Source: Candidatus Woesearchaeota archaeon | GTDB taxonomy: Archaea > Nanobdellota > Nanobdellia > Pacearchaeales > GW2011-AR1 | NCBI GenBank assembly: GCA_964448605.1 | Contig: CAYUZV010000001.1 | Coordinates: 8,693 to 72,692 of the forward strand | Length of the DNA stretch: 64,000 nucleotides | Direction of reading: 5' to 3' | Shown here: piece after piece, positions 29,022 to 61,990 of the stretch | Layout of the letters: each line of letters opens with the position of its first letter | Numbering within the stretch: the stretch's first letter is position 1 | The notes under the pieces: generated by a model | Database searches by the model: none | What the model saw: only the letters and a program-made list of their open reading frames with translations | What the model was told of the DNA's origin: nothing | Translations under genes and position numbers: made by a program

Positions 29022-31082
29022 CTATTTCTCAGCACTCTGTTCTTTCTTTTGTCTCTCTAAAAAATTTCTTATAAATTCTTTGTTTTTTTCATAATCAATT
29101 ACCTTTTTTATTTCATAAACCTCTCCTTCACCAATCTCTTTTTTATCTGCTTTTATTTCAGAGATTCCTTTTTTGTAAGATTCTTTTGTTACTAAGATTT
29201 GTTTATCAGATGCATCTGCTAATCTCTTTGCAGTGCTTATAAAATTGCCTAATGCTGTAAATTTTAATTTTTTATTTTCTATTTTGCTTACAATATCTCC
29301 TGAATTTATTCCAATCCCAAATTCAAACTTGTCATTGAATTTTTTATTGTGTTCTTTTAAGAAAAGTGCTATTTTTTCAGCACATTTTGCTGCGACTCCT
29401 TCATTTTTGTTTGATTTTGTCATTACAGGACTGAAAATCATATATAAATAATCTCCTTGTTCATAAATCGCTCCTTTGTTTTTGTAAACACATTCAACTG
29501 CTTTTTCCAAACTTTTTTTAGAATTATCATTTATTTTATTTTTTATTTTTAAAACAATTGCTACTGCCTTGTTTTTATCTCCTTTTGCAACTAATCCTTG
29601 TTCTGCTTGATTTGGTGCTTTTAGAGTTTCTTTTGTTTTTACAGATGTTTTGTTTTTTTTCTTTTTAAAAAAAGGATATGCAAATGATTTTTTCTTAAAT
29701 ATATTTCTGAATAGGAATAGTGTTCCTGCTCCAAGAATAAGAATGAAAAAAATCCAGACAATTGGTGTTTTTAGTGCCATTGAACCTGTTTCTTTAATGT
29801 CTCTTACACTAACTGCATTTCCAGTTAAAACAACTCCTCCTTGGTTTAGTTCGTTTTCTCCATCACTTATTCTTATATTATATTCTTCTCCTGAACCTGT
29901 TAATTTGAATTCTTTGCTGTTTCCTAATTCAAGTTCAACTTTTTTTACAAAAGGTTTGCCATTTAATTCTATTTGAATGTCTTTTTGGTAAGGTATGTTT
30001 CCAATGTTTTTGACAATTAAGCTATTGTTAATTAATTCAAAAGAAGCTATTTCTTTTTCATTTATGTAGAATTTTTTTATATTGTTTACATCTTTGCTTG
30101 ATGCTTCTATTTCATAATATCCTGATGTTTGATTGAATGGTATTTTGAAAAATACTGTTTCGTCTGATTGGACTATTTTTTCAAATATTCTTTCAGATTG
30201 TGAGTTTCTTATAATTACAGAAATTTCGTCTGGAATTAGGTTTCCAGTTTGGTCTAAAAGTATTGGTTTGAATTGGAGTTCTTCTCCAGGGTTAATGTTT
30301 TGATTATTTAATGCGATGTCTGCTTCTGTTAGTATCTGAAAGATTTCCAGATTTGCCATTGCTATTCCCTCGCTTGCTCTTGTTCCTGAAACTTGCTCGT
30401 AAACAAGTGCATCTATTCGATATTCTCCTGCCGGAGATTCATAAGGAATTTGAATATCTACTGAAAAAAAACCTTCGTCTACTTTTCCATAAAATTTTCC
30501 AGCTTCAATATCAGGAGTTATTGAATTTGTTGTTTCTTCTGTTTGATTTGTTTGATTGTTTTCTTCCTGGATTTCAGGTTCTTCTGTGATTGTTTCTAGA
30601 ATAGTTAAAAGAGGAATTGTTACTTCAACATTTCCATTTGCTGGAGCTCCATTTATTTTTTTTGCATTTCCTGAGATTGTTAGAGTTTCTCCAGGATTTG
30701 CATAAAATGATTCTGTGTCTAAATAAACTTCTAATGCATTTGAGATTTTGAATTTTCGGCTTTCTTGTGATTCTTGGTCATACTCTGTGTAGAGGTGACA
30801 TTCTCCGTTTGCTTCATTTATTGTATGAAAATTTAAAGGTAATTTAATTTCGACTATTCCCTCTTCTGAAGGGAGTAGATTAAAACTTATTACATTAGTG
30901 CCAGTGCATATTAAATCAGTTTTAATTAAGTGTCCTTCTTTTATTAAGTCTACATTTACTTCAACATCAATTCTATCACCGAGATTGTAAGTTGGCTGAA
31001 TATTATCATAGTAAATTCCTGCCTGTATAAACTGGATTACTAAGGACAAGATTATAATTATTAACAAACTTCTCTTTTTCAT
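29022..31082 (-). CDS. Receptor-like membrane protein. Signal peptide, extracellular domain of about 430 aa, one TM helix, and an intracellular class III nucleotidyl-cyclase-homology (CHD) domain that looks degenerate.
   Basis: Signal MKKRSLLIIIILSLVIQFIQAG. TM helix TPIVWIFFILILGAGTLFLF. C-terminal region aligns by eye to the CHD consensus: AVAIVLKIKN vs VxxLFADIxGFT (first metal Asp replaced by Lys), QGDYLYMIF vs IGDAYMVAF, FEFGIGINSGDIV vs LRIGIHTGPVV, KFTALGNFISTAKRLAD vs EYTVIGDTVNLASRLE. Confidence 0.5.
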   Translation of the reverse strand: MKKRSLLIIIILSLVIQFIQAGIYYDNIQPTYNLGDRIDVEVNVDLIKEGHLIKTDLICTGTNVISFNLLPSEEGIVEIKLPLNFHTINEANGECHLYTEYDQESQESRKFKISNALEVYLDTESFYANPGETLTISGNAKKINGAPANGNVEVTIPLLTILETITEEPEIQEENNQTNQTEETTNSITPDIEAGKFYGKVDEGFFSVDIQIPYESPAGEYRIDALVYEQVSGTRASEGIAMANLEIFQILTEADIALNNQNINPGEELQFKPILLDQTGNLIPDEISVIIRNSQSERIFEKIVQSDETVFFKIPFNQTSGYYEIEASSKDVNNIKKFYINEKEIASFELINNSLIVKNIGNIPYQKDIQIELNGKPFVKKVELELGNSKEFKLTGSGEEYNIRISDGENELNQGGVVLTGNAVSVRDIKETGSMALKTPIVWIFFILILGAGTLFLFRNIFKKKSFAYPFFKKKKNKTSVKTKETLKAPNQAEQGLVAKGDKNKAVAIVLKIKNKINDNSKKSLEKAVECVYKNKGAIYEQGDYLYMIFSPVMTKSNKNEGVAAKCAEKIALFLKEHNKKFNDKFEFGIGINSGDIVSKIENKKLKFTALGNFISTAKRLADASDKQILVTKESYKKGISEIKADKKEIGEGEVYEIKKVIDYEKNKEFIRNFLERQKKEQSAEK

Positions 31083-31121: not shown

Positions 31122-31460
31122 TTATTTATCAGAATCAATTAATGCAATTATTCCACCAATTAGTGCAAGAATTCCAATAAGTGAGCTTATTGATAAAACA
31201 CCTACAACTATAGCAATTATTGCACCTGTTCTGACTGTTTTGGGATTTTTCATTTTTTCAGATGCATTCCAAAGCAATAATCCTATTGCAAAGATTATTA
31301 GAGAGATTAGTAAAATTATAAATATTAAATTAAAAGGCAGTCCTTGGTATAGGGACAATCCTATGATTAATATTATTCCTAATAATAGGATTATTCCTGC
31401 AGTTATGAGATTTATGATTGCTGCGATTTTTGTTAATAGAGCACCTGTTTTGCTTTTCAT
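31122..31460 (-). CDS. Small integral membrane protein with 3-4 TM helices.
   Basis: Strongly hydrophobic helices. Preferred over the overlapping plus-strand ORF on genomic context. Confidence 0.3.
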   Translation of the reverse strand: MKSKTGALLTKIAAIINLITAGIILLLGIILIIGLSLYQGLPFNLIFIILLISLIIFAIGLLLWNASEKMKNPKTVRTGAIIAIVVGVLSISSLIGILALIGGIIALIDSDK

Positions 31461-31490: not shown

Positions 31491-31709
31491 TTAAGGTTTC
31501 ACTAAATTTTCTAATTCTCCTCTTATTTCTTCTAAAGATGTTTCTTGATTTATTTCATTTAAAATATGATTTATTGCTAAGGTGTATCCATAATAGCATG
31601 CTCGGGTGTATGCTCCTGTTCCAGTCATTACCTTTGTTCCTTTTTCATTTGGTTTTGTTTCTTGTTTTATTTTTCTTTTATAGAAATCTATTTGGTTGGT
31701 GAAAATCAT
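31491..31709 (-). CDS. Hypothetical small protein.
   Basis: 72 aa of diverse composition. Same strand as neighbours. Confidence 0.2.
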   Translation of the reverse strand: MIFTNQIDFYKRKIKQETKPNEKGTKVMTGTGAYTRACYYGYTLAINHILNEINQETSLEEIRGELENLVKP

Positions 31710-32048: not shown

Positions 32049-33995
32049 TTATTGATTTGGTGTTCCTGACATTCGGCTTCCGCCTCCTGGAATTTCTCCA
32101 CCTAATTCCATTGGCAGTGTATGGAATCCTGCTCCGTATGTTTGGTGATGTATTGATGGATTTATTGTTCCGTGTCCTCCATAATATGGTCCGAAAGATG
32201 CCATTGCCTGATTCCAGAAAGGACCTGCCATTCCAGAGTATATTGGTGAACCTCCACTTTCTAATGTATAAATAAATGGGCTTGTTTGGAAATGCTGGAA
32301 AAAATTTCCACCTTCAAAAATCCTTTTACCCTTGAATCCACCTTTTTTTAATTCTTCTAAAATATCTTTCATTGGAAGATTTCCCATTCCAGGGGGGAGG
32401 TCTGTGTGTGTTGAACCAAAATTGTCATTGTAGTGGAGGTGTTTTACAAATGGTGCAATTTCCTTTGTCTCTTTTGTAATTTGTTCAGGACCAAAACCTT
32501 GTTTTCTCATCATAGAAATGTGAGAGGTGTCCCATGTGGCTCCAATTAATCTTTTTGCTGCTGCTTCTGCTTCTTTTTTTGATTTACCTTGCTTGATTAA
32601 TTTGTCTTGGAAATTTTTTCTTGTTTTTTGGATTAATTCTTTTAATTCTTTTCCTGATGAAAGAGCATATCCGTAAAGTGGATTTTCAACACTCAGTATT
32701 GGTGCTTTTTCTCCGTATTTTTCATAAGCATGAAGTGCAGTATTTGCCAGAGTTTCACTTGATTTTTCATTTGTGAATTTTTCTATTGGGACGAATTGTT
32801 GGGGAATTGGTATACTTCCAAAACCTTCCAGAGTTTCATCAAATAATTGAGATTGTTTTAAAATAATTTCAGGTTTTCTTTTTCTGTATTCTTGAGGGTT
32901 ATTATATTGTAAATTAAACTCTTCTTCAGAATTTTTATTCCATTTCCTTTGTATTACCTTTAAATAGTCTCTTACTTTTACTACTTTTCCAGTCTTAGGG
33001 TCTTTTATACCTTCTCCTGTTTGAGGGTTTCTTAATAAAGGGTCATCTAATTCACTAAATCTTGCAGCTTTTTCAAAGGTATTCTGCAAACTCATTTGAA
33101 CATTTTCTAAAAATCTTTCTGCTCTGTCTAATTCTTTTAATGCAGGTTGATAATATTCTTGTTCTTCTGTTGTTATTTTTTCACCCTTTGATACTTTTTC
33201 TAAATAAGGGATTAATTGAGGTTGGACTCTTCGTATTATTTCATCTGCCTCTTTTTTATAAAAATCAATTTCCCGAATATTATTCCTCCATTGGCTTGTA
33301 TTTACCATTTTTAATCTTCTTTCTGGGTCAAATATTTGTCCTTTTGCTTTTTTTCCTTCTAAATTTGTTTCTTCTGGGAAATAAGTGTAATCTCTTTCTA
33401 ATGCAGTTGGTTTTCCTGTTTGTTGGTCAATTACAACTAATCTTCCTATTTCAGGACCTTTTCCTTTTTTTTGTTCTGGAATTAATTCTGTTCCAGGAAG
33501 TTCGTGAGATGCATGGACTGTTACAGGCATGTTTCCTTTTGGACTTAGCTCTTGTGCTCTTGCTATTATTGTTTTAAATTGTTCTTCTGCTGATTCTCTA
33601 TTTTGCTCTGACCATCCTTGCTGTGTGATTCCAGAAGGTTCAATTAGAGGTGCATGAAGTGTTGATTCTGCTCCTGTTAATTCATTTAATCTTTTAATTT
33701 CATTTAAATGTCCTTTGGGCATCATTTCAAAAACTTCAGGGTTGATTACAGAAACTTCAGTTGTTTTCATTCCTTGATTAAGTAGTTTAGAAACTTCTTT
33801 TAATTGATTAGAGGTTTGAATTGAAGTTGTTCCTCCCATTTCTCCAACTGGAACTCTGTAACCCATAAAGTTATAACTAGGGTCAAGAAGATAAGTTGTG
33901 CCTGGATAAATAGATTCATATGATACCATCTTTTTATTAAAAGGTTTGGATTGTTTATATATTTTTGGGAGTAGATTATAGAAATATTTAAACAT
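32049..33995 (-). CDS. Large uncharacterised protein with a divergent xylose-isomerase-like / endonuclease-IV-like TIM-barrel split by an insertion of about 300 aa, plus a G/P-rich C-terminal tail. Last gene of the five-gene operon.
   Basis: By-eye correspondence to AP-endonuclease-2 / sugar-phosphate-isomerase TIM-barrel motifs: YRVPVGEMGG (~VGAHVSAAGG), TLHAPL, VTVHASHE, TWDTSH (~DTCH), VKHLHYNDNFG...PPGMGNLPMKDILEELKKGGFKGKRIFE (~HLHLND...GEG.I.........GY.G....E). C-terminal tail GGEIPGGGSRMSGTPNQ. No overall family match recognised. Confidence 0.4.
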   Translation of the reverse strand: MFKYFYNLLPKIYKQSKPFNKKMVSYESIYPGTTYLLDPSYNFMGYRVPVGEMGGTTSIQTSNQLKEVSKLLNQGMKTTEVSVINPEVFEMMPKGHLNEIKRLNELTGAESTLHAPLIEPSGITQQGWSEQNRESAEEQFKTIIARAQELSPKGNMPVTVHASHELPGTELIPEQKKGKGPEIGRLVVIDQQTGKPTALERDYTYFPEETNLEGKKAKGQIFDPERRLKMVNTSQWRNNIREIDFYKKEADEIIRRVQPQLIPYLEKVSKGEKITTEEQEYYQPALKELDRAERFLENVQMSLQNTFEKAARFSELDDPLLRNPQTGEGIKDPKTGKVVKVRDYLKVIQRKWNKNSEEEFNLQYNNPQEYRKRKPEIILKQSQLFDETLEGFGSIPIPQQFVPIEKFTNEKSSETLANTALHAYEKYGEKAPILSVENPLYGYALSSGKELKELIQKTRKNFQDKLIKQGKSKKEAEAAAKRLIGATWDTSHISMMRKQGFGPEQITKETKEIAPFVKHLHYNDNFGSTHTDLPPGMGNLPMKDILEELKKGGFKGKRIFEGGNFFQHFQTSPFIYTLESGGSPIYSGMAGPFWNQAMASFGPYYGGHGTINPSIHHQTYGAGFHTLPMELGGEIPGGGSRMSGTPNQ

Positions 33996-34494
33996 CTCTT
34001 AATCTGAAATCCTTTTCTTTTTGTTCAAATGGAAGAGGTCCTGAATCTTGTTGAAATCCTGGTGTGTAGTTTTGGTTTTGATTGTTCATTCCTGGATAAT
34101 TTGTTGCTGAAGCTCTCATATCAACATCTCTTTGAAATCCAGGTGCTCCTCGATTTATTGCACTTATTCCTGTATTTTGAGGAGAGGTTTCATATTCTGT
34201 ATTGTTGTTTTCTTCATAAGGATTGTTTGTTTCCTGATAAGTATTCTGAATTCCTGTGTAAGGGTTTAAATTGTTTTCTTCTTGTTCATCATTTCTTCTT
34301 ATTCTTACATTTCTTAATCCTTGTTCTAAATCTGTAATTGGTTCTGTGTCCAGAGTGTGTTGGGGATTTTCAGTTCTTCTGAATGGAGTGAATGTTGTAG
34401 TTTCATCTATGATGTTTTCTAGTTCTTCGTCAAGGTCTTCATCTTCAGATTCCTCTTCAAAATCTTCATCCTCTTGTGATTCTTCTTCTTCCAT
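33988..34494 (-). CDS. Highly acidic, N/Q/E-rich intrinsically disordered protein. Fourth gene of the operon.
   Basis: MEEEESQEDEDFEEESEDEDLDEELEN... then N/Q/T/Y/P-rich low complexity. 8-nt overlap with the downstream gene. Confidence 0.4.
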   Translation of the reverse strand: MEEEESQEDEDFEEESEDEDLDEELENIIDETTTFTPFRRTENPQHTLDTEPITDLEQGLRNVRIRRNDEQEENNLNPYTGIQNTYQETNNPYEENNNTEYETSPQNTGISAINRGAPGFQRDVDMRASATNYPGMNNQNQNYTPGFQQDSGPLPFEQKEKDFRLRDV

Positions 34495-34524: not shown

Positions 34525-36003
34525 TTATCGTCCACCCATTCCCAGATGAACTTTTCCAAATGTTGAAGGTGATTCTTTTGAGCCTTTTTCTCCACCTGTT
34601 CTTACTGATGCCATTCCCATTGATTTCTTGAAAATATCATAAACTGTGAATCCAGCATCCATTGAATCAGCTTCAGCATAATTTCTCAAAAATTGTTCAT
34701 AATAATTATCTGGTTTGATTCCTTTTTCTTTTATTATTTTTAATTTTTCTTTTTCTTTATCTTCTTCTGATTTTTTTGGTTTTTTTTCAGAAGTAAATGC
34801 AAAAAGGGCTGAAAATGGATTTGTATCATCTTTGTTTTTTAATTTTTCTTCTTCTTTATCTTCTTCTAAAAATTCCTTTATGTCATCAGATAATTGTGCA
34901 AGAGAGTCGTCTGTCACTCCTTTTACAAGTTTCAGTGAATCTTCTAAATCTGACTCGTTTAATTTATCTTTTAGTAACATTATTTCTTCATGGTTTAAGC
35001 AATATGATTTGAAGGATATGTCTGCTCGTCCTCCAAAAACATAATGTTGTCCTGCTTTTTGAGGTATTCCTCTAAATGTGAATGTTACAAAAAGAACCTG
35101 AAAATATTCTCTTAATGCTTTTTTTTCTTCTAGTTTTAGGAATTTTTCTGGAAGGTCTTCATTGATAACTGCTCCTTGTATGTTGAATTTTTTTGTTCCC
35201 ATTAAAGTTAATTCTAAAAGTATTGTATTGAATGCAGTTACTAATGCTGCATCTTTTTGAAGTCCTTCGTCTTCTGAAAGTTGTTCTGCTGCTCTTAAAT
35301 ATGGCTTTGCCCATTTTGAGTAGAGTTTTAAAGAGTCTACTTCACTTTTTAAGTATCTTTTTTCAATTTCATATCTTTTTCTTAATTCTTGTTCACTTCT
35401 TTTTTTCCATTCAAAAAATTCCTGGAGTCTTGGTTTTAGTATTCTTTTTACTCTATCATTTAAATCCATACCATCTACTGCTTTTACTGATTTTGCTGAT
35501 AAAAATGCATCTCTTAGGGTTACAAAACTTAGTTCTCCTGCTGTGAGTGCATTTATGCTTCCTTGTCCTCTTTGGACATCAACTTTATCCATCCATATTT
35601 GTTTTAATGCTAATAGTCCTGCTTCTGCTTTTTGAGGGTCTTTTGATTTTGCAGTTTCATAATGGCTTAATCTTATTTTGAATTCTTTTAAGTCGTAAAT
35701 AATATTCATTGTTCCTTTTAGAACATTATTTACATTTCCTAAAATTCTTGCTGCTTCTTGTTGCATCTGAGTTGCTTTTCCTCTTAGTTCTGAAAAATGC
35801 CCACTTCCAGGTGATGAAGCAAAATTGTCTGTGATTTTTTCAACTTTTTTAAAACTATTATTCATAAAATCAAGAATCCAGAAATAAACTGGTTCTAATG
35901 TTTCAGATGCTGAATCAAAAGTTAGTTTATGCTCTATTGCAGGATTGCCTTTTTTATATCTTGGACTTATTTTACTAATGATTTTTCCTATTTCCATTTT
36001 CAC
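34525..36003 (-). CDS. Uncharacterised 492-aa predicted alpha-helical/coiled-coil protein with an acidic K/E-rich C-terminal region. Third gene of the operon.
   Basis: Long ORF with protein-like composition. No recognisable catalytic motif. Central heptad-like region (KKRSEQELRKRYEIEKRYLKSEVDSLKLYSKWAKPYL). Confidence 0.45.
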   Translation of the reverse strand: MKMEIGKIISKISPRYKKGNPAIEHKLTFDSASETLEPVYFWILDFMNNSFKKVEKITDNFASSPGSGHFSELRGKATQMQQEAARILGNVNNVLKGTMNIIYDLKEFKIRLSHYETAKSKDPQKAEAGLLALKQIWMDKVDVQRGQGSINALTAGELSFVTLRDAFLSAKSVKAVDGMDLNDRVKRILKPRLQEFFEWKKRSEQELRKRYEIEKRYLKSEVDSLKLYSKWAKPYLRAAEQLSEDEGLQKDAALVTAFNTILLELTLMGTKKFNIQGAVINEDLPEKFLKLEEKKALREYFQVLFVTFTFRGIPQKAGQHYVFGGRADISFKSYCLNHEEIMLLKDKLNESDLEDSLKLVKGVTDDSLAQLSDDIKEFLEEDKEEEKLKNKDDTNPFSALFAFTSEKKPKKSEEDKEKEKLKIIKEKGIKPDNYYEQFLRNYAEADSMDAGFTVYDIFKKSMGMASVRTGGEKGSKESPSTFGKVHLGMGGR

Positions 36004-37197: not shown

Positions 37198-38502
37198 ATG
37201 GTAAAAGAGATAATAAAAGCAAAAAGTTTCGCAGTAGTAGGTGCTTCTGATGATGGGAGGAAGGTTGGACATATTGTTTTTAAAAATTTGTTTGATAAAA
37301 GGGTTAAAGTTTATCCTGTGAATAATAAGGGCGGGGAAGTTTTAGGAGAGAAATGTTTTAAGAATCTTAGAGAGATTAATGAAAAAGTTGATTGTGTGAT
37401 TGTTGCTATTCCTTCTAAATTTGTTTTGGAAGTTTTAAAAGAAGCAGGAGAAAATAAAATAAAAAATATTGTGATTATTAGTGCTGGTTTTTCTGAATCA
37501 GGTGATGGTGAGTTGAGTGAAGAGGTTGAGAAAGTTGCTAAAAAGTATGATTTGAAGATTGTTGGTCCAAATACTCTGGGTTTTATTAATCCTTATACAA
37601 ATGTTAATGCGAGTTTTTTTGATGGAAGGATTGTTAAAGGAGATGTAGCTTTTTTGAGTCAGTCAGGTGCAATTGGAGTTGGTGTTTTGGATAAGGGTGT
37701 TGGGTTATCTGGTTTTGTTTCATTGGGAAATTCTTTGATAAATGATGTTAGTGATTTTATTGAGTATTATGGTAAAGATGAGAATACTAAAAAGATTGCT
37801 GTTTATTTGGAGTCTTTGGGTGTTGGTTGTGGTAAAAGATTTATTGATGTTTGTAAAAAATGTGAGAAACCAATTTATATTTTGAAGGCAGGTAAGAGTT
37901 CTGAAGGGCAGAAGGCAGCGAGTTCTCATACTGCTGCACTTGCTTCTGAAAAAGGAATTTATGAAGGTGTTTTTAAGCAGTGTGGAATCAAGGAAGTTGA
38001 TTCTATTTCAGAGTTGTTTGGTTTTAATTTTGAAAGAGTTGAGGGAGACTTTAAGGTTAAGGGCAATCGGAGTTTGATTATTACAAATGCAGGAGGTTTG
38101 GGTGTTTTGGTTTCTGATTATTGTTCTGAAAATGGAATTGAGATTTCTGATTTGCCTTCTGATATTAAGGTTGAGCTTGGGAAAGTTTTACCTCGTGCAT
38201 GGAGTAAAGGAAATCCTATTGATGTTTTAGGTGATGCACAGGCAGATAGGTTTGAAAAAAGTTTTGAGATTTTGGAAAAAGGTGATTTTTTTGATTTTTA
38301 TATTGTTCTTTTAACTCCTCAATATATGACAGAACCTGAAAAAACTGCTGAAATTTTATTAGATTTGAAAAAGCCAGTTGTTGCTTGTTTTTTAGGTGGT
38401 GAGAAAGTTGTTAGTGCTTTTGGGGTTTTGAAGGGCAAGATTCCTGTTTTTAAGGAGCCGAAGGAGATGTGTGAGTGGGTTGGGAGAAAAATCATTCTCT
38501 AA
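37198..38502 (+). CDS. Acetyl-CoA synthetase (ADP-forming) alpha-type subunit, with CoA-binding and succinyl-CoA-synthetase-like domains.
   Basis: N-terminal CoA-binding domain (KSFAVVGASDDGRKVGHIVFKNL). ISAGFSESG. IVGPNTLGFINP. 434 aa. Confidence 0.65.
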   Translation: MVKEIIKAKSFAVVGASDDGRKVGHIVFKNLFDKRVKVYPVNNKGGEVLGEKCFKNLREINEKVDCVIVAIPSKFVLEVLKEAGENKIKNIVIISAGFSESGDGELSEEVEKVAKKYDLKIVGPNTLGFINPYTNVNASFFDGRIVKGDVAFLSQSGAIGVGVLDKGVGLSGFVSLGNSLINDVSDFIEYYGKDENTKKIAVYLESLGVGCGKRFIDVCKKCEKPIYILKAGKSSEGQKAASSHTAALASEKGIYEGVFKQCGIKEVDSISELFGFNFERVEGDFKVKGNRSLIITNAGGLGVLVSDYCSENGIEISDLPSDIKVELGKVLPRAWSKGNPIDVLGDAQADRFEKSFEILEKGDFFDFYIVLLTPQYMTEPEKTAEILLDLKKPVVACFLGGEKVVSAFGVLKGKIPVFKEPKEMCEWVGRKIIL

Positions 38503-39122: not shown

Positions 39123-39683
39123 TTATCCACTCCTTGCATCAACAATAATCGCCTTGTCTTTTGTAAGAATTACAGGATTTAAATCTAATTCATTAAAATT
39201 TAATTTAGATATTTTGTATGCAAGTTCTGTGAATTTGGTTAGGGGTTGAGTTTTGTTTTTTATTTGATTGTAGTTTTTGAGTTGTTCTATTGCTTGTTTT
39301 ATTTCTTCTTTGTTTATTGGAATCGCTCTGAATTCAACATCTTTTTTTTCTTCAATACTTGAACCTCCAAAACCTATCATTAACATTTTTCCAAAAACTT
39401 TATTTTCTTTTATTCCAATAACCATTTCTGTCCCTTTAATTTCTTTCTGAATTATTATATTTGTTTTTGGAAATTTTTCTTTTAATTTTTTTAGATTTTT
39501 TGTTGCTTCTTTTTGATTGTTTATTTTTATTACCCCTCCTGATTTTAATTTGTGTTTTCCTGAATCTATTTTCATGTAATAAGGAGTTGGAATTTTGCTT
39601 AGGTCTTTTTCTGATTTTATTAATAGAGTTTTAGCTAAAGGTAGATTTTTTAGTTTGTTGAATGTTTGAAGTAGTGTTTCCAT
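39123..39683 (-). CDS. Acetyl-CoA synthetase (ADP-forming) beta-type subunit, ATP-grasp domain.
   Basis: 186 aa. C-terminus LDLNPVILTKDKAIIVDARSG matches the ACD beta ATP-grasp end (EINPL...AVDARI). Confidence 0.55.
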   Translation of the reverse strand: METLLQTFNKLKNLPLAKTLLIKSEKDLSKIPTPYYMKIDSGKHKLKSGGVIKINNQKEATKNLKKLKEKFPKTNIIIQKEIKGTEMVIGIKENKVFGKMLMIGFGGSSIEEKKDVEFRAIPINKEEIKQAIEQLKNYNQIKNKTQPLTKFTELAYKISKLNFNELDLNPVILTKDKAIIVDARSG

Positions 39684-47318: not shown

Positions 47319-47427
47319 AAGGACTACAAAGTGTTACACTGGTTAGAAATTAGTTATAAAATAATAACGAAAAAATCATAATCACTAACACAAAACTTTA
47401 AATCATCAAAAGGACACAGAAATATAT

Positions 47428-47508
47428 GCCGCAGTCGCATAATGGTATTGCACCAGATTGCTAATCTGGACCCTTCGGGGTGCGTAGGTTCGATTCCTGC
47501 CTGCGGCG
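47428..47508 (+). tRNA. tRNA-Ser (anticodon GCU), type II with long variable arm. No encoded CCA.
   Basis: Manually folded. Acceptor GCCGCAG/CTGCGGC. D-arm GCAT-AATGGTA-TTGC. Anticodon stem CCAGA/TCTGG with loop TTGCTAA. Variable arm ACCCTTCGGGGTG. T-arm GTAGG-TTCGATT-CCTGC. Discriminator G. Followed by a T-rich tract. Confidence 0.8.
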
Positions 47509-47567
47509 TTTTTATTTTAAATTCATTAACTTTAAATAATCTATATATTTTTGAATTTAATAAAAAG

Positions 47568-49088
47568 ATGAAACTTAATATTTTAATTGGTGGAAAAGCA
47601 GGACAAGGAATTAATAAGATATCAGAGATTATTTCAAATGTTTTTACTAAAAATGGATATTTTGTTTTTAATTATCGGGATTATCCTTCGTTGATTCGGG
47701 GAGGACATAATTTTAATGTTCTTACGATTTCTGATTCAGAGGTTTTTTCAAATGAGTCTAAATTTGATGCTGTGATTGCTATGGATGAGAATAGTGTTAA
47801 GGTTCACGAAGGTGAGTTGAAAAAGGAGGGTGTTGTTTTTAAGGGAGATGATTATAAGGATTTGGGAAGAGATTTGAATATTGCTCTTGCTTCTGCTTAT
47901 CTTAAGAGTATTGGTATTTCTAAGGAAGTTGTGGTTGAAGAAGTTAAATCTCATTTTGAACATGAGGGTGCTAGAAATGCTGTTGAGGAAGGTTATTCAT
48001 TTGAGGGAGATATTGATGATTGTGGTTTTTGTAAGAGGGATGGTGATATTGTGAAAATGACTGGAAGTGTGGGGATTTCTGAAGGTGCAATTAATTCAGG
48101 TATTGATGTTTATCTTGCTTATCCAATGACTCCTGCAACAGGAGTTTTGCATGATTTAGCGAGTAAGCAGGAGAAACATGGTTTTTTGGTTTTTCAACCT
48201 GAAAATGAGATTGCTGTTGCAAATGCTTCTTTGGGTTGCAGTTTTGCTGGTGCTAAAACAATGGTTGGGAGTTCAGGAGGAGGTTATGATTTGATGACAG
48301 AGGCATTGAGTATGCAGGGGATGGCTGAAATTCCTTTAGTTGTTTATCTTGCTTCAAGACCCGGACCTGGTACAGGTGTTCCAACTTATTCATTACAAGA
48401 TGATTTAGATGTTGCTTTAAGGGGAGGGCATGGAGAATTTCCAAGAGTAGTGATTGCTCCTGGAGACCCTGTTGAATGTATTGAAAATACTAATGAGGCA
48501 TTTTATTTATCTGAGAAATTTGGAGTTTTGAGTATTGTTTTAAGTGATAAACATCTGGCTGAAAGTGAATTTAGTTCTGATAGAGATTTAAAAAAATCTT
48601 TGAAGGTTGAGGTTAAAAGAAAAGTTCCAGGTGAGGGAATTGTTAAGTCAAGCAGTTATGAACACGATAAGAATTGGAACACTATTGAAGATGCTGAAAC
48701 TGCTAAGGAATTTGCTGATAAGAGGGTTGCTCGTTATGGTTTGATTAAGGATGAGTGTAAGAAGTTTGATATGATTAAAATTCATGGGAAAACGGATAGT
48801 AAGAATTTGGTGATTGGTTGGGGTTCTACTAAAGGAGCTATTTTAGATGCTATTCGGGGAGAGGATTTTAAATTTTTGCAGGTTTTATATTTGAAACCTT
48901 TGAGCGATGAGATAAGGAAAGAGATAGAGAGTGCTAATAAGATAATTTTGGTTGAACAAAATGTTACAGGGCAGTTGGGCAGGTTGATTAGAGAGAAAAC
49001 TGGAATTAAGATTGATAAAAGGATTTTGAGATATGATACTCGTCCTTTTAATAGTGATGAGTTAAAGGTGGAGTTATTGAAAATTTAA
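47568..49088 (+). CDS. 2-oxoacid:ferredoxin oxidoreductase, fused gamma-alpha subunit (PorG/PorA-like).
   Basis: N-terminus MKLNILIGGKAGQGINKISEII (gamma-subunit GGxGGQG motif). Alpha-domain motifs AYPMTPATG and GGGYDLM. The ORF-track start at 47442 lies inside the tRNA and is rejected. No beta subunit is adjacent. Confidence 0.7.
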   Translation: MKLNILIGGKAGQGINKISEIISNVFTKNGYFVFNYRDYPSLIRGGHNFNVLTISDSEVFSNESKFDAVIAMDENSVKVHEGELKKEGVVFKGDDYKDLGRDLNIALASAYLKSIGISKEVVVEEVKSHFEHEGARNAVEEGYSFEGDIDDCGFCKRDGDIVKMTGSVGISEGAINSGIDVYLAYPMTPATGVLHDLASKQEKHGFLVFQPENEIAVANASLGCSFAGAKTMVGSSGGGYDLMTEALSMQGMAEIPLVVYLASRPGPGTGVPTYSLQDDLDVALRGGHGEFPRVVIAPGDPVECIENTNEAFYLSEKFGVLSIVLSDKHLAESEFSSDRDLKKSLKVEVKRKVPGEGIVKSSSYEHDKNWNTIEDAETAKEFADKRVARYGLIKDECKKFDMIKIHGKTDSKNLVIGWGSTKGAILDAIRGEDFKFLQVLYLKPLSDEIRKEIESANKIILVEQNVTGQLGRLIREKTGIKIDKRILRYDTRPFNSDELKVELLKI

Positions 49089-49631: not shown

Positions 49632-49792
49632 ATTTTTTCCTCCTGATTATTTATTTGAATTATCGTAGAATTATAAATTCTAAGATTATTAAACAAAATT
49701 AAAGGCATTTTTAAATGTTTGTGATAGGAAGATTTATCCAATCAGTGATTAACCCGAACCTTTTTAAACCCCTTTTTTTTAGATATTTTAGA

Positions 49793-51595
49793 ATGGTAGA
49801 TAAAGAAAATAAAGATTCTGAATCAACTCTTGATGCACGACAATATCAGAGTCCTGATTTGAAAAATGTTCCTCAAAATATTAAGGGTCCGACTCTTGAA
49901 GAGCAAAAGGAAATGGACAGGGTTAGGGCTAAGCTTGAGGTTTTGAAGAAGTGGATTTGTTCAAAAATTAAGGGTGTTAATGCAATTGGAATTATTCCTC
50001 CACAGGCTGCTGAAAAGTTTGACGAGGAAAATGAGTTGAATGAAGAGGAGAAATCTAAGAAACCGATGCATCTTGTTGTTGTTCTTGAAAATGAAAAGGA
50101 GAAAGAATTTAATCAGATTAGAGGAGAGATAATTAAGAAGATTGCAGAAGAGAAGCAGAACATTTGGTTGAATTTGTTTATTGAGAAAGATATTTGGGAG
50201 ATTTGTCTTGACAGCAAGTATGATATTTCAGAAGCAATTGGAATGTCTTATCCTTTGTTTGACAAGGGAATTTTAGGTGCTTTGAGAGTTGCACAGATTC
50301 ATAAGTCATTAGTTTTAAAGAAATTTGAGAAATATGTTTATAGTTATGTTATTGGGGGGAGTATTGTGAGAGGTGAGGCAATCAAAACAAGTGATGTTGA
50401 TGCTTATATTATAATTGATGATACTGATGTTAAAAGAATGCCTCGTCTTGAGTTAAAGGAGAAGTTAAGGAATATTATTTATTCTTATATTATGCAGGCA
50501 GGTGAGTTGGCTGGTGTTAAAAATAAGTTGAGTGTGCAGGTTTATTTGTTGACTGAATTTTGGGAAGGTGTAAAAGATACTAATCCTATTTTTTATACTT
50601 TTTTGAGAGATGGTATTCCTCTTTATGATAGGGGAGGATTTTTGCCATGGAAGTTGTTATTAAGAATGGGAAAGATTAAACCAAGTCCAGAGGCAATTGA
50701 TATGTTTATGAATTCAGGTGATAAAACAAGAGATATGGTTAAAAGAAGGTCTATTGATATTATGATTGATATTTTTTATGGTGTTTCAATGCCGAGTCAG
50801 GGGCTTTTGATGTTGTATGGTGTTCCACCTACAAATGTTAAAGAGACTGTTGCTGAAATGAAAAGGATTTTTGTTGATAAGGAAAAATTATTGGAGAAAA
50901 AGTATATTGATATTTTAGAAGAGATTATGATAAAGTATTACAAAGGTTATGAGCATGGGAAGGTTAAAGAGTTGAGTGGTGCTGAAATTGATAAACTTTT
51001 GAAAAATTTTGATGAGTATCAAAAAAGATTGAAGCAGTTGAAAGAACAGATTGAGAAGAGAATGATGGAAAAGAATTTTAAGAAGATTTACGAGGATATT
51101 TTTAAGATTTTGAAAAATATGTTTGGTTCTAAGAGCGATAGTGCTTTGATTAATGAGTATGAAAGTGAGATTGTGAATAAGGCAAAAGGAAATCCAAAGT
51201 ATTTGCATACTCTGAATCAGTTAGTTGATATGAAGAAGAAATACAAGGACAAGAAGATTCCGAGTCGTTATGATTTTGAGAGATTGAAAAGAGATGCTAT
51301 TTATATGACTCAGGAGTTGATAGAGTATGCTCAAAGAAAGGATATGGGGCTTTTGCAAAAGACAAAGGTTGTTGTGACATTTAAAGGCGGACATAAGGAA
51401 TTGTTTTTGACTAAACCTGCCTTTTTAGTTGATGATAAAGAAGTTAAAAAGATTGAAGGTGGGGAGATTATGAATAGTGATATGAATGAGATGAATGAAG
51501 TTTTAAGTAAGTATAAAGGTAGTCGTGTGGTTTTAGATGGTGAAATTATGAATGCTTTAAAAAAAGAGTTTGGAGAGTTTGGAGTTAGTTTGTAA
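49793..51595 (+). CDS. Pol-beta-superfamily nucleotidyltransferase-domain protein with N- and C-terminal coiled-coil extensions. Paralog of 61154-61990.
   Basis: NTase motif YVIGGSIVRGEAIKTSDVDAYIIIDD (GS...[DE]x[DE]). The shared downstream motif MGKIKPSPEAID aligns with DGKIKPTPESI in the paralog. The ORF track begins at 49715; the first ATG is at 49793. Confidence 0.5.
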   Translation: MVDKENKDSESTLDARQYQSPDLKNVPQNIKGPTLEEQKEMDRVRAKLEVLKKWICSKIKGVNAIGIIPPQAAEKFDEENELNEEEKSKKPMHLVVVLENEKEKEFNQIRGEIIKKIAEEKQNIWLNLFIEKDIWEICLDSKYDISEAIGMSYPLFDKGILGALRVAQIHKSLVLKKFEKYVYSYVIGGSIVRGEAIKTSDVDAYIIIDDTDVKRMPRLELKEKLRNIIYSYIMQAGELAGVKNKLSVQVYLLTEFWEGVKDTNPIFYTFLRDGIPLYDRGGFLPWKLLLRMGKIKPSPEAIDMFMNSGDKTRDMVKRRSIDIMIDIFYGVSMPSQGLLMLYGVPPTNVKETVAEMKRIFVDKEKLLEKKYIDILEEIMIKYYKGYEHGKVKELSGAEIDKLLKNFDEYQKRLKQLKEQIEKRMMEKNFKKIYEDIFKILKNMFGSKSDSALINEYESEIVNKAKGNPKYLHTLNQLVDMKKKYKDKKIPSRYDFERLKRDAIYMTQELIEYAQRKDMGLLQKTKVVVTFKGGHKELFLTKPAFLVDDKEVKKIEGGEIMNSDMNEMNEVLSKYKGSRVVLDGEIMNALKKEFGEFGVSL

Positions 51596-53846: not shown

Positions 53847-56800
53847 ATGGAATTTAAAAAAGGGATGAATTCATTTATAGATGATGCTATTAAAAATCTG
53901 AATGAGAGTGCAGAAAATTCAGATGATTTAGATGAATCAAGGGATATTAGTGTTGATGAGTTTTTTAATGATAAAAAGGCAGAACTTTCAGGTTATGCAA
54001 AAACTTCGCCACAACCTGATTTGGTAAAATGGTTTTCAGAAGTTAATAACAAAGATGTTCAGACAGTAGGAGGGAAAGGTGCTTCCCTTGGTGAGATGTA
54101 TAATTCTAAGTTTCCAGTTCCACCTGGTTTTGTTATAACTGCACAAGCTTTTGATTTTTTTATAACTAAAAGTGGGATTAAGGATGATATAAAGAAAATT
54201 ATGGAAAGCATTGATTTGGAAGATACAGGGGATTTGCATGAGGCATCTAAAAAAATTCGGAGTTTAATTGAGAGCAAGGAGATTCCTGAAGAGCTTGAAA
54301 AAGAGATTTTGGAATCTTATAATATTTTGAGCAGTGAGGATATTGATGAGATTGGTGTTTCACAGGATGCTTTGAATATTTTGAAAAATTCGCAGGAGCC
54401 AGTTTTTGTTTCAGTTAGAAGTTCTGCAACAACTGAAGATTTAGCTGATGCAAGTTTTGCAGGACAGCAGGAAAGTTTTTTGAATGTAAAAGGAAATTCT
54501 CAATTGATTGAAAAGGTTCGAAAATGTTTTTCTTCTCTTTATACTCCTCGTGCAATTTATTATAGAGGGAGCAAAGGATTTAAGGAAAGTGAAGCACTTT
54601 TAGCTGTTGTTGTTCAAAAGATGATTGATTCTGAAAAGTCAGGTGTTGTTTTTTCAAGAGACCCTGTTAATCTTGATGATAAGGTTGCTATTGAAGCTGT
54701 TTTTGGTTTAGGTGAGGGAATTGTGGGAGGTAAAATTAAACCAGACCATTATATTGTTTCAAGAGATTTAGAAATAAAAGATATGAAAGTTTTTGATAAG
54801 AAGATTGCTATTGTTCGGACAGGGAGTGGTGAGAATGGAATTGTAAAACTTAGTCCTGAAAAAAGTAAGACTCAGGTTTTGAGTCGTGGTGAATTGAAGG
54901 AGATTGCAGATTATGCAGTCAGATTAGAAGAGCATTATAAAAAACCGCAGGATATTGAATTTGCAGTTGAAAATGGTGAGGTTTATATTTTGCAATCAAG
55001 ACCAATTACAACTCTGAATAAAGAGAGTAAAAAAAGTGAGATTAAAGGCAATGTTATTTTGCAGGGACAGAGTGCGAGTTCAGGTGTTGGTTCTGGTGTT
55101 GTTAAAATAATTGAATCAATGGATGATTTGCCTAAGGTGAAAAAAGGTGATGTTTTGGTTACTGAAATGACCAATCCTGATATGGTTGTGGCTATGCAAA
55201 AATCTTCAGCAATTGTTACAAATGAAGGAGGCATGACTTCGCATGCTGCTATTGTTAGTCGTGAAATGGGCATACCTTGTGTTGTTGGAACTGATAATGC
55301 GACAGAAGTTTTGAAGGAAGGTATGAGAATAACTGTTGAAGGTTCATCTGGAAAGATTTTTGAAGGGCAGGTTGCTGAATCAAAATCTGTTGAAATTAAA
55401 AAAGCTGTTTCAACTGAAAAAATAAAAATAAAAGTTATTGTTGATTTGCCTGAATTTTCTGACAGAGCTGCTGAATCAGGTGTTGAAGCAATTGGACTGA
55501 CTCGTCTTGAAGGAATTATCGCAAGTATGAAAAAACACCCTTTGAAGTATGAGAAAGAAAAAAAATTAGATGATTATACAAAAGTTTTAGAAGAAGGTAT
55601 TGCTAAGATTATTAAAAATTTTAAATCAATGTGGGTTCGTGCTTCGGATATTCGGACTGATGAATATAGTTCATTAGAAGGTGCTCCTGAAAAAGAGATT
55701 AATCCTATGCTTGGTTTTCATGGTATTAGGTTTAGTTTAAAACATCCTGAAATTTTGAAAGCAGAATTACAGGCAATTAGAAATATTGCTGATAAGTTTC
55801 CAGAGAAGAAAATAGGGATTATGTTTCCACAGGTTATTTCAATTGAGGAAGTTAAAGATGTTAAAAAAATCTTTGATGAATTCAGAACAGAGAATATGGA
55901 ATTTGGTGCTATGATTGAGACACCTGCAAGTGTTCAGATAATTGATGATATTTGCAAGGAGGTTGATTTTATTTCTTTTGGAACTAATGATTTGACTCAG
56001 TTTACATTAGGAGTTGATAGGAATAATGAAGATGTTCAGTATTTGTATAATGAGATGCATCCTGCAATTTTTTCACAGATTAAAAAAGTTCTTGATGCTT
56101 GTAGGGAGAATGATGTTGAGTCAAGTATTTGCGGGCAGGCAGGTTCTAAAAAAGAAATGGCTGAATTTTTGTTTAAAGAAGGTATTAAAAGTATTTCTGT
56201 TAATGCTGATGCTGCTCATGATATTTCGATTTTGATTAGTGAATTAGAAGGGAATTGGAAAAAAGGAGAGGATGAAAGATTGGAGAATGAGAGGAAGGTT
56301 AAGGAAGAAGAATTTGAAAAAGAGAGATTAGAAAAAGAAAGGGTTGAAAGAGAGGAGCAGGAAAGACAGGAGAGAGAAAGAATTGAAAAAGAAAATATAG
56401 AAGGAGAAGAAAGAGAGAGACAGGAAAAAGAGAGATTAGAAGCAATTGAGAGAGAAAGGCTGGAGAATGAAAAAAAAGGAGAGATGGAAAAATTTGAAGA
56501 AGAAAGGAAAAAGTTTGAAAAAGAGAAATTAGCATTTGATGAAGAAAAAAAGAAATTTGAAGAGGAGAAGTTAGAAAGGGAGAAATTGAAGAGTGAGGAG
56601 ATTGAAAAAGAAGAGCAGGAAAATGAAGTAAGTGAAGAGGAAAAATTGAAAGCACTTGAAAAAGAAAAAGAGGAAAGTGAAAGATTGGAGAGGAAGAAAG
56701 AGGAGGCAATTGAAAGAGAGAAATCTGAAAGTGGTGAGAGTTCCGGAGAATCTGTTGAAGAAGTTTCTGAATCTTTTGATTCTATAAAAGATTTAAAAAA

Positions 56801-60374: not shown

Positions 60375-61157
60375 ATGGCGCAGATATTACCTGAACCAAA
60401 TGTAATTGATATATTAGGAAAATATTCTGATACAAAGAGAGATTTTTTAAGAGCAGCTAGTGCTGTAGTAACTTTAGAAGAATTAGCTAATGGAAAAGAT
60501 TGGTCAAATCCTGAAGATAGGCAGAGTTTGGGAAAAATGATTTATCCTGAAAATCCTGGTCTTTTTGAAGGAAGGGCTGTTGATGTTTTTAGAAATGATG
60601 TTTCAGTTCTTAGTTCTGTTGTTCCTGCTCAATTAAGTGCTTATATGTCAAATGGCGATAATAGGGATGATATATTTGGAGAGTTAGTTGATGAAGATGT
60701 AATTTTTGAACTTCCTATGGAATTGCCTTTTGTTGAGACAGGAGATGAAAAAAAGGATAGATTGGGAATAAGTGCTGTTAAATATAAACAGGTTTCAAGA
60801 GTTTTGGAAATGAGAGAAGAAGAAAGACAAAGATATGTTTTAAATAGGCTTCAAAAAAGTAAAATTCCTGAAGCTTGGTTGTATGGTTTTAATCCTAGTA
60901 ATTCTAATGATATTTATATGACTTTAAATTCTTATAGGTTATCTGATGGAGCTACTTACAAAAGAAATGTTTTTTCTGCCGGAGCTAATGGTGTTATAGA
61001 TTATGCTAAGAGAGTTTTAGAAGTTATTAAAGGTGAGAATAAAGATAGAGAATTGGTTCTTTTTGATAGAGGTTTAGCTAAAACAGCTTTAGGTCAGTTT
61101 GGTTATACTCAAAGAAAGGAAGAAGCTGAAAAATCTAAAGAGAATAAGTCAGATTAA
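60375..61157 (+). CDS. Hypothetical protein.
   Basis: 260 aa with no motif. Convergent with the NTase paralog. Confidence 0.3.
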   Translation: MAQILPEPNVIDILGKYSDTKRDFLRAASAVVTLEELANGKDWSNPEDRQSLGKMIYPENPGLFEGRAVDVFRNDVSVLSSVVPAQLSAYMSNGDNRDDIFGELVDEDVIFELPMELPFVETGDEKKDRLGISAVKYKQVSRVLEMREEERQRYVLNRLQKSKIPEAWLYGFNPSNSNDIYMTLNSYRLSDGATYKRNVFSAGANGVIDYAKRVLEVIKGENKDRELVLFDRGLAKTALGQFGYTQRKEEAEKSKENKSD

Positions 61158-61990
61158 ACAATCTCCTTAATTAATTTCATAGTTACATTAAAGAATTCTT
61201 CTGCTTTGTCTTGCCACATGTCAATTACATTTCCTGAAATGTCTTTGATTTCTCCGTGCATGATTTTTTTGTGGAGTTCGTAGATTTCTTTGAAGTCTTT
61301 TACATATTTTGATTTTAAAAGATTTTTATTTACAAAATGTTCATTTAGAAATGCTGTTAAATGTTCATATGAAGGAGGAGTTACATTAACTGCCATAAGA
61401 AGTGCTTGTGCAGAATCTACCATTGCCCAGAAGCTTCCTTCAATTGCAGATATTTCTGACTGCTTGCTTCTTATAATGTGGAATGGAACTCTGTTTAAGC
61501 AGGCATGGATTGATTCAGGTGTTGGTTTTATTTTTCCATCTTGTAAAAGTAATTTCAAAGGATTAAAAAAACCTCCAAAGTCAATTAGGACTTCTCCGTA
61601 TCTTAAAACATTAATTACAGTCGGGTCTCCGTTTGTTAAATCCTGCCACCATGTTGTGAGTTTTATTGTGTTTATGTGCAAATCTCTTTTGTATGGGTTT
61701 GATTTCATTATTTTTCCTAATTCATCTCTATACCATGCAATAAGTTTTTCATCAAATTTTATAGAGGCATCATCTATGATAATTATTATGTCAATATCAG
61801 AACCAGTTACCATTGTTTGTTTTGTTGCTGAACCAAAAAGGACGATTGACTTCACCATTTTGTCAAATTTTGTGTAAACTTTTTGAGCAAAATCCATTGC
61901 AATATCTCTTTCTGATTTTATGTGCAGGGTTGGATGTTTAGTAGATTTTGTTTTAGTTACTTCTTTTTTTTCAGATTTTTTCTTTTTCAT
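61154..61990 (-). CDS. Pol-beta-superfamily nucleotidyltransferase fused to a C-terminal helical (HEPN-like) domain, KNTase-like architecture. Paralog of 49793-51595.
   Basis: VLFGSATKQTMVTGSDIDIIIIIDD (NTase motif). DGKIKPTPESIHACLNRVPFHIIR. Confidence 0.5.
   Translation of the reverse strand: MKKKKSEKKEVTKTKSTKHPTLHIKSERDIAMDFAQKVYTKFDKMVKSIVLFGSATKQTMVTGSDIDIIIIIDDASIKFDEKLIAWYRDELGKIMKSNPYKRDLHINTIKLTTWWQDLTNGDPTVINVLRYGEVLIDFGGFFNPLKLLLQDGKIKPTPESIHACLNRVPFHIIRSKQSEISAIEGSFWAMVDSAQALLMAVNVTPPSYEHLTAFLNEHFVNKNLLKSKYVKDFKEIYELHKKIMHGEIKDISGNVIDMWQDKAEEFFNVTMKLIKEIV

Follow-up and report, generated by a model that had tools for sequence, protein, structure and literature searches.

Endonuclease IV (Nfo/Apn1) is a three-metal apurinic/apyrimidinic (AP) endonuclease that belongs to the AP_endonuc_2 or xylose isomerase-like triosephosphate isomerase (TIM) barrel superfamily of Pfam (PF01261), and nine residues of the Escherichia coli enzyme are important for catalysis (Kiyonari 2009, PMC2770678). 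In the same study, MJ1311 of Methanocaldococcus jannaschii is included among the predicted homologs of Nfo. The ketose epimerases, which include the D-psicose, D-allulose and D-tagatose 3-epimerases and E. coli YcjR, feature a Glu-Asp-His-Glu core. MJ1311 (structure 3WQO), which has been described as a 'D-tagatose 3-epimerase-like protein', is a 293-aa single domain to which, to our knowledge, no function has been assigned. Here, we examined a 64,000-nucleotide stretch (the window) of contig CAYUZV010000001.1 from a Candidatus Woesearchaeota archaeon, which encodes on its minus strand a 626-aa protein of this fold that we call the split-barrel protein. Relative to MJ1311, it contains an insert of ~235 aa after beta4, a 51-aa C-terminal tail and an N-terminal extension; Nfo and the ketose epimerases likewise lack the large insert and the tail. 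Its fold and its metal site are both known, and what sets it apart is their fixed, lineage-specific arrangement and the association with partners of no assigned function.

The original prediction, which was made from window positions 32049-33995, described a 648-residue product with motifs of the AP-endonuclease-2/sugar-isomerase family in canonical order and proposed a xylose isomerase-like TIM barrel interrupted by an insert of ~300 aa. The 648-codon open reading frame (ORF) was confirmed, on the minus strand, and the quoted motifs are all present in its product in the stated order. Residues are numbered here on the 626-aa protein, and the 648-aa numbering is higher by 22. The PF01261 profile matches aa 450-539 with 39.3 bits, which exceeds the gathering score of 31.1, and a PF01261 match was found in 47/47 aligned homologs. 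When aa 147-377 were excised in silico and the remaining protein was rescanned against Pfam, we obtained one collinear PF01261 match that covers profile positions 27-228 of 249 with 44.7 bits, and the N-terminal part is therefore the in-register first half of this domain. When 27 homologs were stripped of the insert and combined into a profile, it matched MJ1311 (3WQO) in the PDB in two collinear segments (E 3.6e-13, 52.8 bits), with the alignment covering the HAP and H-x-G strands plus the C-terminal half. MJ1311 was the only solved structure convincingly found by sequence in the PDB profile search, from which canonical Nfo chains were absent at E <= 10.

Structure prediction agrees with the profile results. 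An AlphaFold2 model generated from the 47-sequence alignment, with a mean predicted local distance difference test (pLDDT) of 83.2 and a predicted template modeling score of 0.81, features eight beta-alpha units, with both halves packed into one barrel and the insert set apart as a separate beta plus helical-bundle domain, as the original prediction had envisaged. Foldseek searches of the PDB with this model returned alignments of 520-550 columns, which span the insert, to D-allulose/psicose 3-epimerases and YcjR (target-normalized template modeling scores of 0.64-0.67), with 7ern, 3vni, 8xix and 6wn6 as best matches (E 7e-4 to 6e-3). A fold search of BFVD yielded weak matches only, to giant-virus AP endonucleases. 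Taken together, the above-threshold Pfam match, the predicted structure and its Foldseek matches uphold the proposed fold, and the model shows one (beta/alpha)8 barrel of the xylose isomerase-like superfamily built from two sequence halves. The unusual domain order, taken alone, could have pointed to a mis-assembly or to two gene fragments fused around an unrelated ORF. However, 686 cluster representatives were recovered with E <= 1e-3, among them 302 with E <= 1e-30, and almost all have lengths of 590-660 aa, such that the same architecture recurs in hundreds of independent assemblies, and the shorter matches are fragments truncated at contig ends. This recurrence, together with the single barrel that AlphaFold2 closes from both halves, refutes an artifact, which we consider as good as eliminated.

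The predicted insertion is real, but its dimensions differ from those first proposed. Because the second barrel half begins near aa 380, the insertion comprises ~235 aa (235-240) rather than ~300, and in the 648-aa numbering the second half starts at ~400 rather than at ~500. In the AlphaFold2 model, the insert consists of a small beta-hairpin region (148-200) and a bundle of four long helices at 202-248, 254-291, 319-343 and 345-370, all of which are predicted with high confidence. It is present in every full-length member, and across 256 aligned sequences the spacing between H139 and E415 is 216-302 aa, in contrast to the 36 that separate the matching H109 and E145 in E. coli Nfo. Conservation within the protein is also lowest in the insert, where the majority-residue frequency is 0.26 compared with 0.60-0.62 in the barrel halves, and only a few of its positions are near-invariant (e.g., N210 in 253/256). 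No significant match to Pfam was found for the isolated insert, and the full-length family profile produced only coiled-coil noise for this region in the PDB. In TIM barrels, the beta-to-alpha loops form the catalytic face, and the model places the insert within the beta4-alpha4 loop, which would lie on that face. The excision junction aligns with the sequence 'YIPELW' of MJ1311, the loop of that protein that reaches over the metal site of the partner subunit, and the insert would therefore be in a good position to cap the active site or to extend it. The family also provides a clean illustration, from nature, of the insertion of a large domain at what appears to be a TIM-barrel catalytic face.

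Both termini extend beyond the barrel. The original prediction had noted a Gly/Pro-rich C-terminus, and its composition is as described: in the final 80 aa, Gly and Pro (30% vs 13% elsewhere) and F/Y/W/H (19% vs 11%) are enriched and charged residues are depleted (5% vs 29%). However, the tail is not merely a low-complexity segment. While its 51 residues are predicted to be disordered (pLDDT <50), its majority-residue frequency of 0.60 equals that of the barrel halves, and P606, G610 and G611 are near-invariant within its motif, Y-G-x-G-F-x-x-L-P-x-E-L-G-G...S-R-x-S-G-x-P. Similarly, aa 1-19 have pLDDT <50 and yet are conserved, with Y8 and G10 invariant in the smaller alignment and present in 226/256 and 208/256 sequences, respectively, in the larger one. 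These patterns of conservation show that the two extensions, which are predicted to be flexible, are under strong purifying selection. Sequence that is conserved but does not fold in isolation most often serves for docking onto a partner or neighboring subunit. We also considered whether the ELGG motif is subject to ubiquitin-like 'GG' processing and dropped this idea, because no beta-grasp domain precedes it.

The conserved residues of the barrel coincide with a recognizable metal site. In the alignment of 256 homologs, six positions are invariant (H92, H139, E415, D467, D502 and E539), and H499 occurs in 255/256 sequences and H470 in 252/256, such that the His, Asp and Glu ligands are invariant or nearly so. 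Positions 508/510 are occupied by (D,H) in 102, (H,D) in 100 and (H,E) in 41 of the 256 sequences and never by (H,H) or (D,D), and therefore this pair always supplies one His and one carboxylate. For block comparison, we took the E. coli Nfo sequence from the K-12 genome, and the following blocks correspond: ILP-H69-DSY with STL-H92-APL, LNF-H109-PGS with VTV-H139-ASH, VI-E145-NTA with SV-E415-NPL, CI-D179-TC-H182 with TW-D467-TS-H470, GM-H216-LND with HL-H499-YND, V-D229-R-H231-HSLGEGNI with T-H508-T-D510-LPPGMGNL, and LIL-E261-T with RIF-E539-G. The D229/H231 pair of Nfo is inverted to H-x-D/E in 55% of family members, including the split-barrel protein of the window. The spacings between ligands resemble those of E. 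coli Nfo once the insert is discounted, and hhalign against the single E. coli Nfo sequence pairs D467, H470 and H499 with D179, H182 and H216 in a local, weak and low-probability alignment. Matched by motif context and spacing, all nine of the three-metal ligand positions of Nfo thus appear to have counterparts. The SVENP block, which contains E415 (Glu437 in the 648-aa numbering), was missed by the original prediction, although the ligand blocks that it quoted are present.

This pattern is shared with MJ1311 and differs from that of the epimerases. MJ1311 and the split-barrel protein have in common the HAP and H-x-G strands, the D-x-x-H and H-x-H-x-x-D-N-x-G motifs, a D-x-H loop before G-x-G-N and the closing Glu. 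E415, D467, H499 and E539 retain the Glu-Asp-His-Glu quartet that PF01261 proteins carry at the strand ends of beta5-beta8, which is the core also shared by the ketose epimerases. In contrast, YcjR lacks the ligand His of both beta3 and beta4 as well as the His/acid pair in the loop, and E. coli UlaE has no beta4 His and no loop pair, with only the sequence 'SAHRR' near beta3. Judged from these alignments, the ligand pattern favors the endonuclease-IV/MJ1311 type over the four-ligand epimerase type. The earlier assignment to the AP-endonuclease-2/sugar-isomerase family stands with respect to the fold, and it did not distinguish between these two types.

Based on the fold and the metal site, we propose that the split-barrel protein may be an MJ1311-like, endonuclease-IV-type multi-metal TIM-barrel enzyme that acts as a metal-dependent phosphoesterase, most likely on nucleic acid. 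We regard this as the most likely function and judge its chances to be evenly balanced, and we hold more tentatively to nucleic acid as the substrate, which we regard as a possibility somewhat short of even. In this mechanism, a two- or three-metal site would activate a water molecule for attack on a phosphate ester, as occurs in endonuclease IV. The most plausible substrate would be a nucleic-acid lesion or 3' end, because of the ligand set and the nucleotidyltransferase (NTase) encoded nearby in most genomes. The inserted arm could serve as a substrate-binding, capping or oligomerization module over the active site, and the conserved tail could dock onto a partner or neighboring subunit. The enzyme would probably work with the products of the adjacent genes, which encode an orphan protein that we call c2, a putatively disordered acidic protein and, in most genomes, the NTase.

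Several results weigh against an endonuclease-IV-type phosphoesterase. None of the NCBIfam nfo models matched the protein at E <= 0.01, and the barrel hidden Markov model (HMM) assigned the lowest score to E. coli Nfo (2.3 bits, compared with 5.2 for UlaE and 8.1 for YcjR). In Foldseek, endonuclease IV structures aligned over ~125 columns of the C-terminal half only, whereas sugar epimerases aligned end to end. The residues that E. coli Nfo inserts for DNA recognition (Arg37, Tyr72 and Leu73) were not recovered in the split-barrel protein: Tyr72 and Leu73 lie three to four residues after His69, and no conserved counterpart of either follows His92, where positions 3 and 4 are variable aliphatic residues and no aromatic residue is conserved. 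MJ1311 itself, in the 2014 description by Uechi et al. in Acta Cryst F, reportedly keeps the nine endonuclease-IV ligands but has no DNA-binding groove and no assigned activity. The inversions of the 508/510 pair trace back to few independent events, with a Fitch minimum of eight switches on one tree (unweighted pair group method with arithmetic mean, with irregular pairs as wildcards) and of at most 13 on another (neighbor-joining, with irregular pairs as a third state); both trees are rough, such that the number of independent swaps is small and uncertain. Furthermore, the linkage with neighboring genes may partly be plain synteny, because the genes for glutamyl-tRNA synthetase (GluRS) and the ribosomal proteins L10e and L35Ae are also conserved nearby, as is that for pyruvate phosphate dikinase (PPDK).

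Some of the same results would fit a sugar or sugar-phosphate isomerase/epimerase in which the Glu-Asp-His-Glu quartet, present here as E415, D467, H499 and E539, forms a single-metal site and the insert serves only as an oligomerization or lid domain. The D-allulose/psicose 3-epimerases and YcjR are the best full-length structural matches, at a sequence identity of 8-10%, and YcjR receives a slightly higher score than Nfo from the barrel HMM. The best NCBIfam match, which is very weak, is to fructoselysine 3-epimerase, and sources name homologs of the protein 'sugar phosphate isomerase/epimerase'. However, that NCBIfam match scored 16.7 bits against a cutoff of 305, and such names have been transferred automatically from the Pfam domain. 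Conservation across the 256 sequences also extends beyond the quartet to H92, H139, H470 and the 508/510 pair; of the three of these features that can be read in the epimerases, namely the beta3 His, the beta4 His and the loop pair, YcjR has none and UlaE has only a His near beta3. The conserved neighborhood, moreover, contains no sugar-metabolism genes. We therefore regard an epimerase as unlikely on the combined evidence.

Another candidate is a phosphodiesterase or phosphatase whose substrate is not a nucleic acid but, for example, the head group of a lipid, a cofactor or a nucleotide-sugar. Such a protein would resemble CbiR, a cobamide-remodeling enzyme that belongs to the same superfamily, and DPANN archaea depend on scavenged lipids and nucleotides. 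The metal-site evidence presented above applies equally to such an enzyme, the sequence reveals no evident DNA-groove signature, and MJ1311 reportedly has no DNA groove either. In contrast, the conserved neighbors include no lipid or cofactor genes, and the NTase gene that usually lies downstream fits nucleic-acid end chemistry better, albeit weakly. Taken together, an activity of this kind on other substrates seems to us improbable.

The proposed partnership of the phosphoesterase draws on the gene neighborhood, which we examined at 81 loci overall, with the NTase counted over 70 loci. The conserved order, with all genes on the same strand, is c2, the acidic protein, the split-barrel protein and the NTase. 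An ORF equivalent to that of the acidic protein (170-230 aa) lies directly upstream of the split-barrel gene in 71/81 loci. These proteins share short motifs only, e.g., a C-terminal LPFE..K..KY, and the composition of the acidic protein in the window suggests that it is disordered. The c2 gene (~485 aa across loci) was found in 60/81 loci and lies upstream on the same strand in 58 of those 60. The c2 protein is highly conserved, with a mean column identity of 59% and >2500 homologs, and no source provides a functional name for these homologs, with those that are named being called 'hypothetical' or 'uncharacterised'. We found no match for c2 in Pfam (including a scan of each member), by sequence in the PDB, in PHROG or in PADLOC, and no profile similarity between c2 and the split-barrel protein. 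An AlphaFold2 model of c2 (pLDDT 74) features long helical hairpins and a beta sheet and had no significant Foldseek match. The NTase (~280 aa) is encoded directly downstream of the split-barrel gene, within 2 kb and on the same strand, in 60/70 loci. In the window, the NTase gene is located ~27 kb from the split-barrel gene, and the trio of c2, acidic protein and split-barrel genes has remained intact despite this rearrangement. A larger paralog with an NTase domain is encoded at 49715-51595. The original prediction had placed the gene in an operon of unknown proteins, which holds for the two upstream genes. These are conserved neighbors, unlike the two small ORFs directly downstream in the window (31491-31709 and 31122-31460), which are not conserved beside the split-barrel gene in other loci. 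The first of these minus-strand ORFs encodes 72 aa with a sub-threshold match (E 1e-3) to a Sulfolobus virus coat protein in its C-terminal domain, and the second encodes 112 aa that resemble a multi-pass membrane protein.

A mainly structural or scaffolding role would also fit the tight linkage of the gene to those for c2, which is rich in coiled coils, and for the putatively disordered acidic protein. In this role, the coiled-coil arm and sticky termini of the split-barrel protein would bring these two neighbors into an assembly, and its metal site would be purely structural. The long helical bundles of the model and the conserved disordered termini, which resemble docking motifs, are consistent with such a role. 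However, nine catalytic-type positions that are kept among proteins of 35-60% identity point to retained catalysis, and we found no direct indication of assembly. For these reasons, we consider a scaffold very unlikely.

The split-barrel family appears to be confined to the Pacearchaeota and Woesearchaeota within DPANN. We identified 556 loci among GTDB species representatives, and of the 80 loci listed, almost all are titled Pacearchaeota, Woesearchaeota, Nanoarchaeota or Nanoarchaeia; the bacterial labels on a few of them probably reflect binning. The gene is single-copy in every locus examined, and family members are 35-60% identical. A scan of viral contigs detected no relative of the split-barrel protein, and searches of PHROGs and PADLOC returned no match for it, c2 or the acidic protein, and therefore neither a phage nor a defense-system function is supported. 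The architecture had been called unusual, which is only partly right: it does stand out among PF01261 proteins, yet it is constant throughout a large family whose members are already labeled in databases as 'TIM barrel protein' or 'sugar phosphate isomerase/epimerase'. These names are automatic transfers from the Pfam domain, and our literature search found no paper on the family.

If the split-barrel protein is a nuclease or a 3'-end phosphoesterase, then some of the repair functions 'missing' from Pacearchaeota and Woesearchaeota have simply been overlooked. DPANN archaea have tiny genomes. According to one comparative-genomics study, they extensively lack DNA repair and recombination enzymes (PMC8407392). 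In a bolder extension of the phosphoesterase proposal, c2, the acidic protein, the split-barrel protein and, usually, the NTase would form a machine that repairs nucleic acids or processes their ends. This machine would be previously unrecognized and limited to Pacearchaeota and Woesearchaeota, with an endonuclease-IV-type active site mounted on a coiled-coil arm, by analogy with the ATPase head of Rad50/SbcC that is split by a coiled coil. We view this machine as speculative and improbable at present; if real, it would supply the AP-site or 3'-end repair that is thought to be lacking in these reduced genomes. The two linked orphan proteins, one of which has no detectable fold relative, are candidates for lineage-specific biology.

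The boundaries of the gene were assigned as follows. Window positions 32049-33995 contain an uninterrupted ORF of 648 codons on the minus strand, and a stop-free run of this length has a chance of ~1e-21 at this base composition; a plus-strand reading was rejected because stops occur throughout its translation. Initiation at 33995, where the first in-frame ATG lies, would add 22 aa that are present in no homolog. Because the homologs and the database copy (P0001, 626 aa, 100% identical) begin at Met23 (MVSYESIYPG), the coding sequence (CDS) is probably the shorter one listed in Table 1. An AT-rich, TATA-like element lies ~27 nt upstream of the M23 ATG and may serve as a promoter element of the gene.

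Table 1. Features of the split-barrel gene, its product and its conserved neighbors (residues in 626-aa numbering unless noted).
Feature	Window position	Strand	Description
CDS of split TIM-barrel protein	32049..33929	(-)	626 aa from M23 plus stop (probable start)
N-terminal extension, aa 1-19	33873..33929	(-)	conserved, predicted disordered
First barrel half, aa 20-146	33492..33872	(-)	beta1-beta4; His92 (LHAPL), His139 (VTVHAS)
Inserted domain, aa 147-377	32799..33491	(-)	beta4-alpha4 loop (from the model)
Second barrel half, aa 378-575	32205..32798	(-)	alpha4 to alpha8; original PF01261 match; putative ligands Glu415 (SVENP), Asp467/His470 (WDTSH), His499 (HLHYND), His508/Asp510 (THTD), Glu539 (IFEGG)
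C-terminal tail, aa 576-626	32052..32204	(-)	Gly/Pro/aromatic
AlphaFold2 elements			beta3 88-92; beta4 135-139; alpha4 382-408; beta5 411-415; beta6 462-467; beta7 495-499; beta8 536-538
Motifs, 648-aa numbering			YRVPVGEMGG 46-55; LHAPL 113-117; VHASHE 160-165; DTSH 489-492; HLHYND 519-524; PPGMG...RIFE 534-561; tail string 606-640
Acidic protein	33988..34494	(-)	168 aa, isoelectric point 4.05, N/Q/E-rich, fast-evolving; directly upstream of split-barrel gene
c2	34525..36003	(-)	490-492 aa, orphan; upstream of split-barrel gene
NTase (c0)	61154..61990	(-)	kanamycin-nucleotidyltransferase-like, PF01909 + PF18765

The window is archaeal in content, with genes for ribosomal proteins S19e and L31e and ~30% GC, and includes several additional features. 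A 686-aa protein encoded at 29022-31082 (-) begins with a signal-like sequence and contains an MG2 domain of the alpha-2-macroglobulin type (PF01835, E 2.6e-9), what looks like a membrane segment and, at its C-terminus, a domain resembling adenylate/guanylate cyclases (PF00211, E 2.2e-5), which is an unusual combination for a DPANN archaeon. The genes for an ADP-forming acetate-CoA ligase are split between opposite strands at 37198-38502 (+) and 39123-39683 (-), and a 188-aa ORF without assigned function separates the alpha subunit (TIGR02717, E 5e-124) from a beta-like piece of the ATP-grasp type. The PPDK encoded at 53847-57371 (+) comprises 1174 aa, compared with 857-911 aa in related loci; its Pfam domains end near residue 798, which leaves ~370 C-terminal residues unexplained. 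The sole tRNA call in the window, tRNA-Ser(GCT) at 47427-47509 (+), overlaps the start of a pyruvate:ferredoxin-oxidoreductase-like ORF (47442-49088), and one of the two start assignments is probably wrong. Finally, plus-strand GC skew is strongly positive (to 0.64, in 2-kb windows) nearly everywhere except at minus-strand genes, which suggests a strong bias of G over C in the coding strands of this ~30% GC genome.

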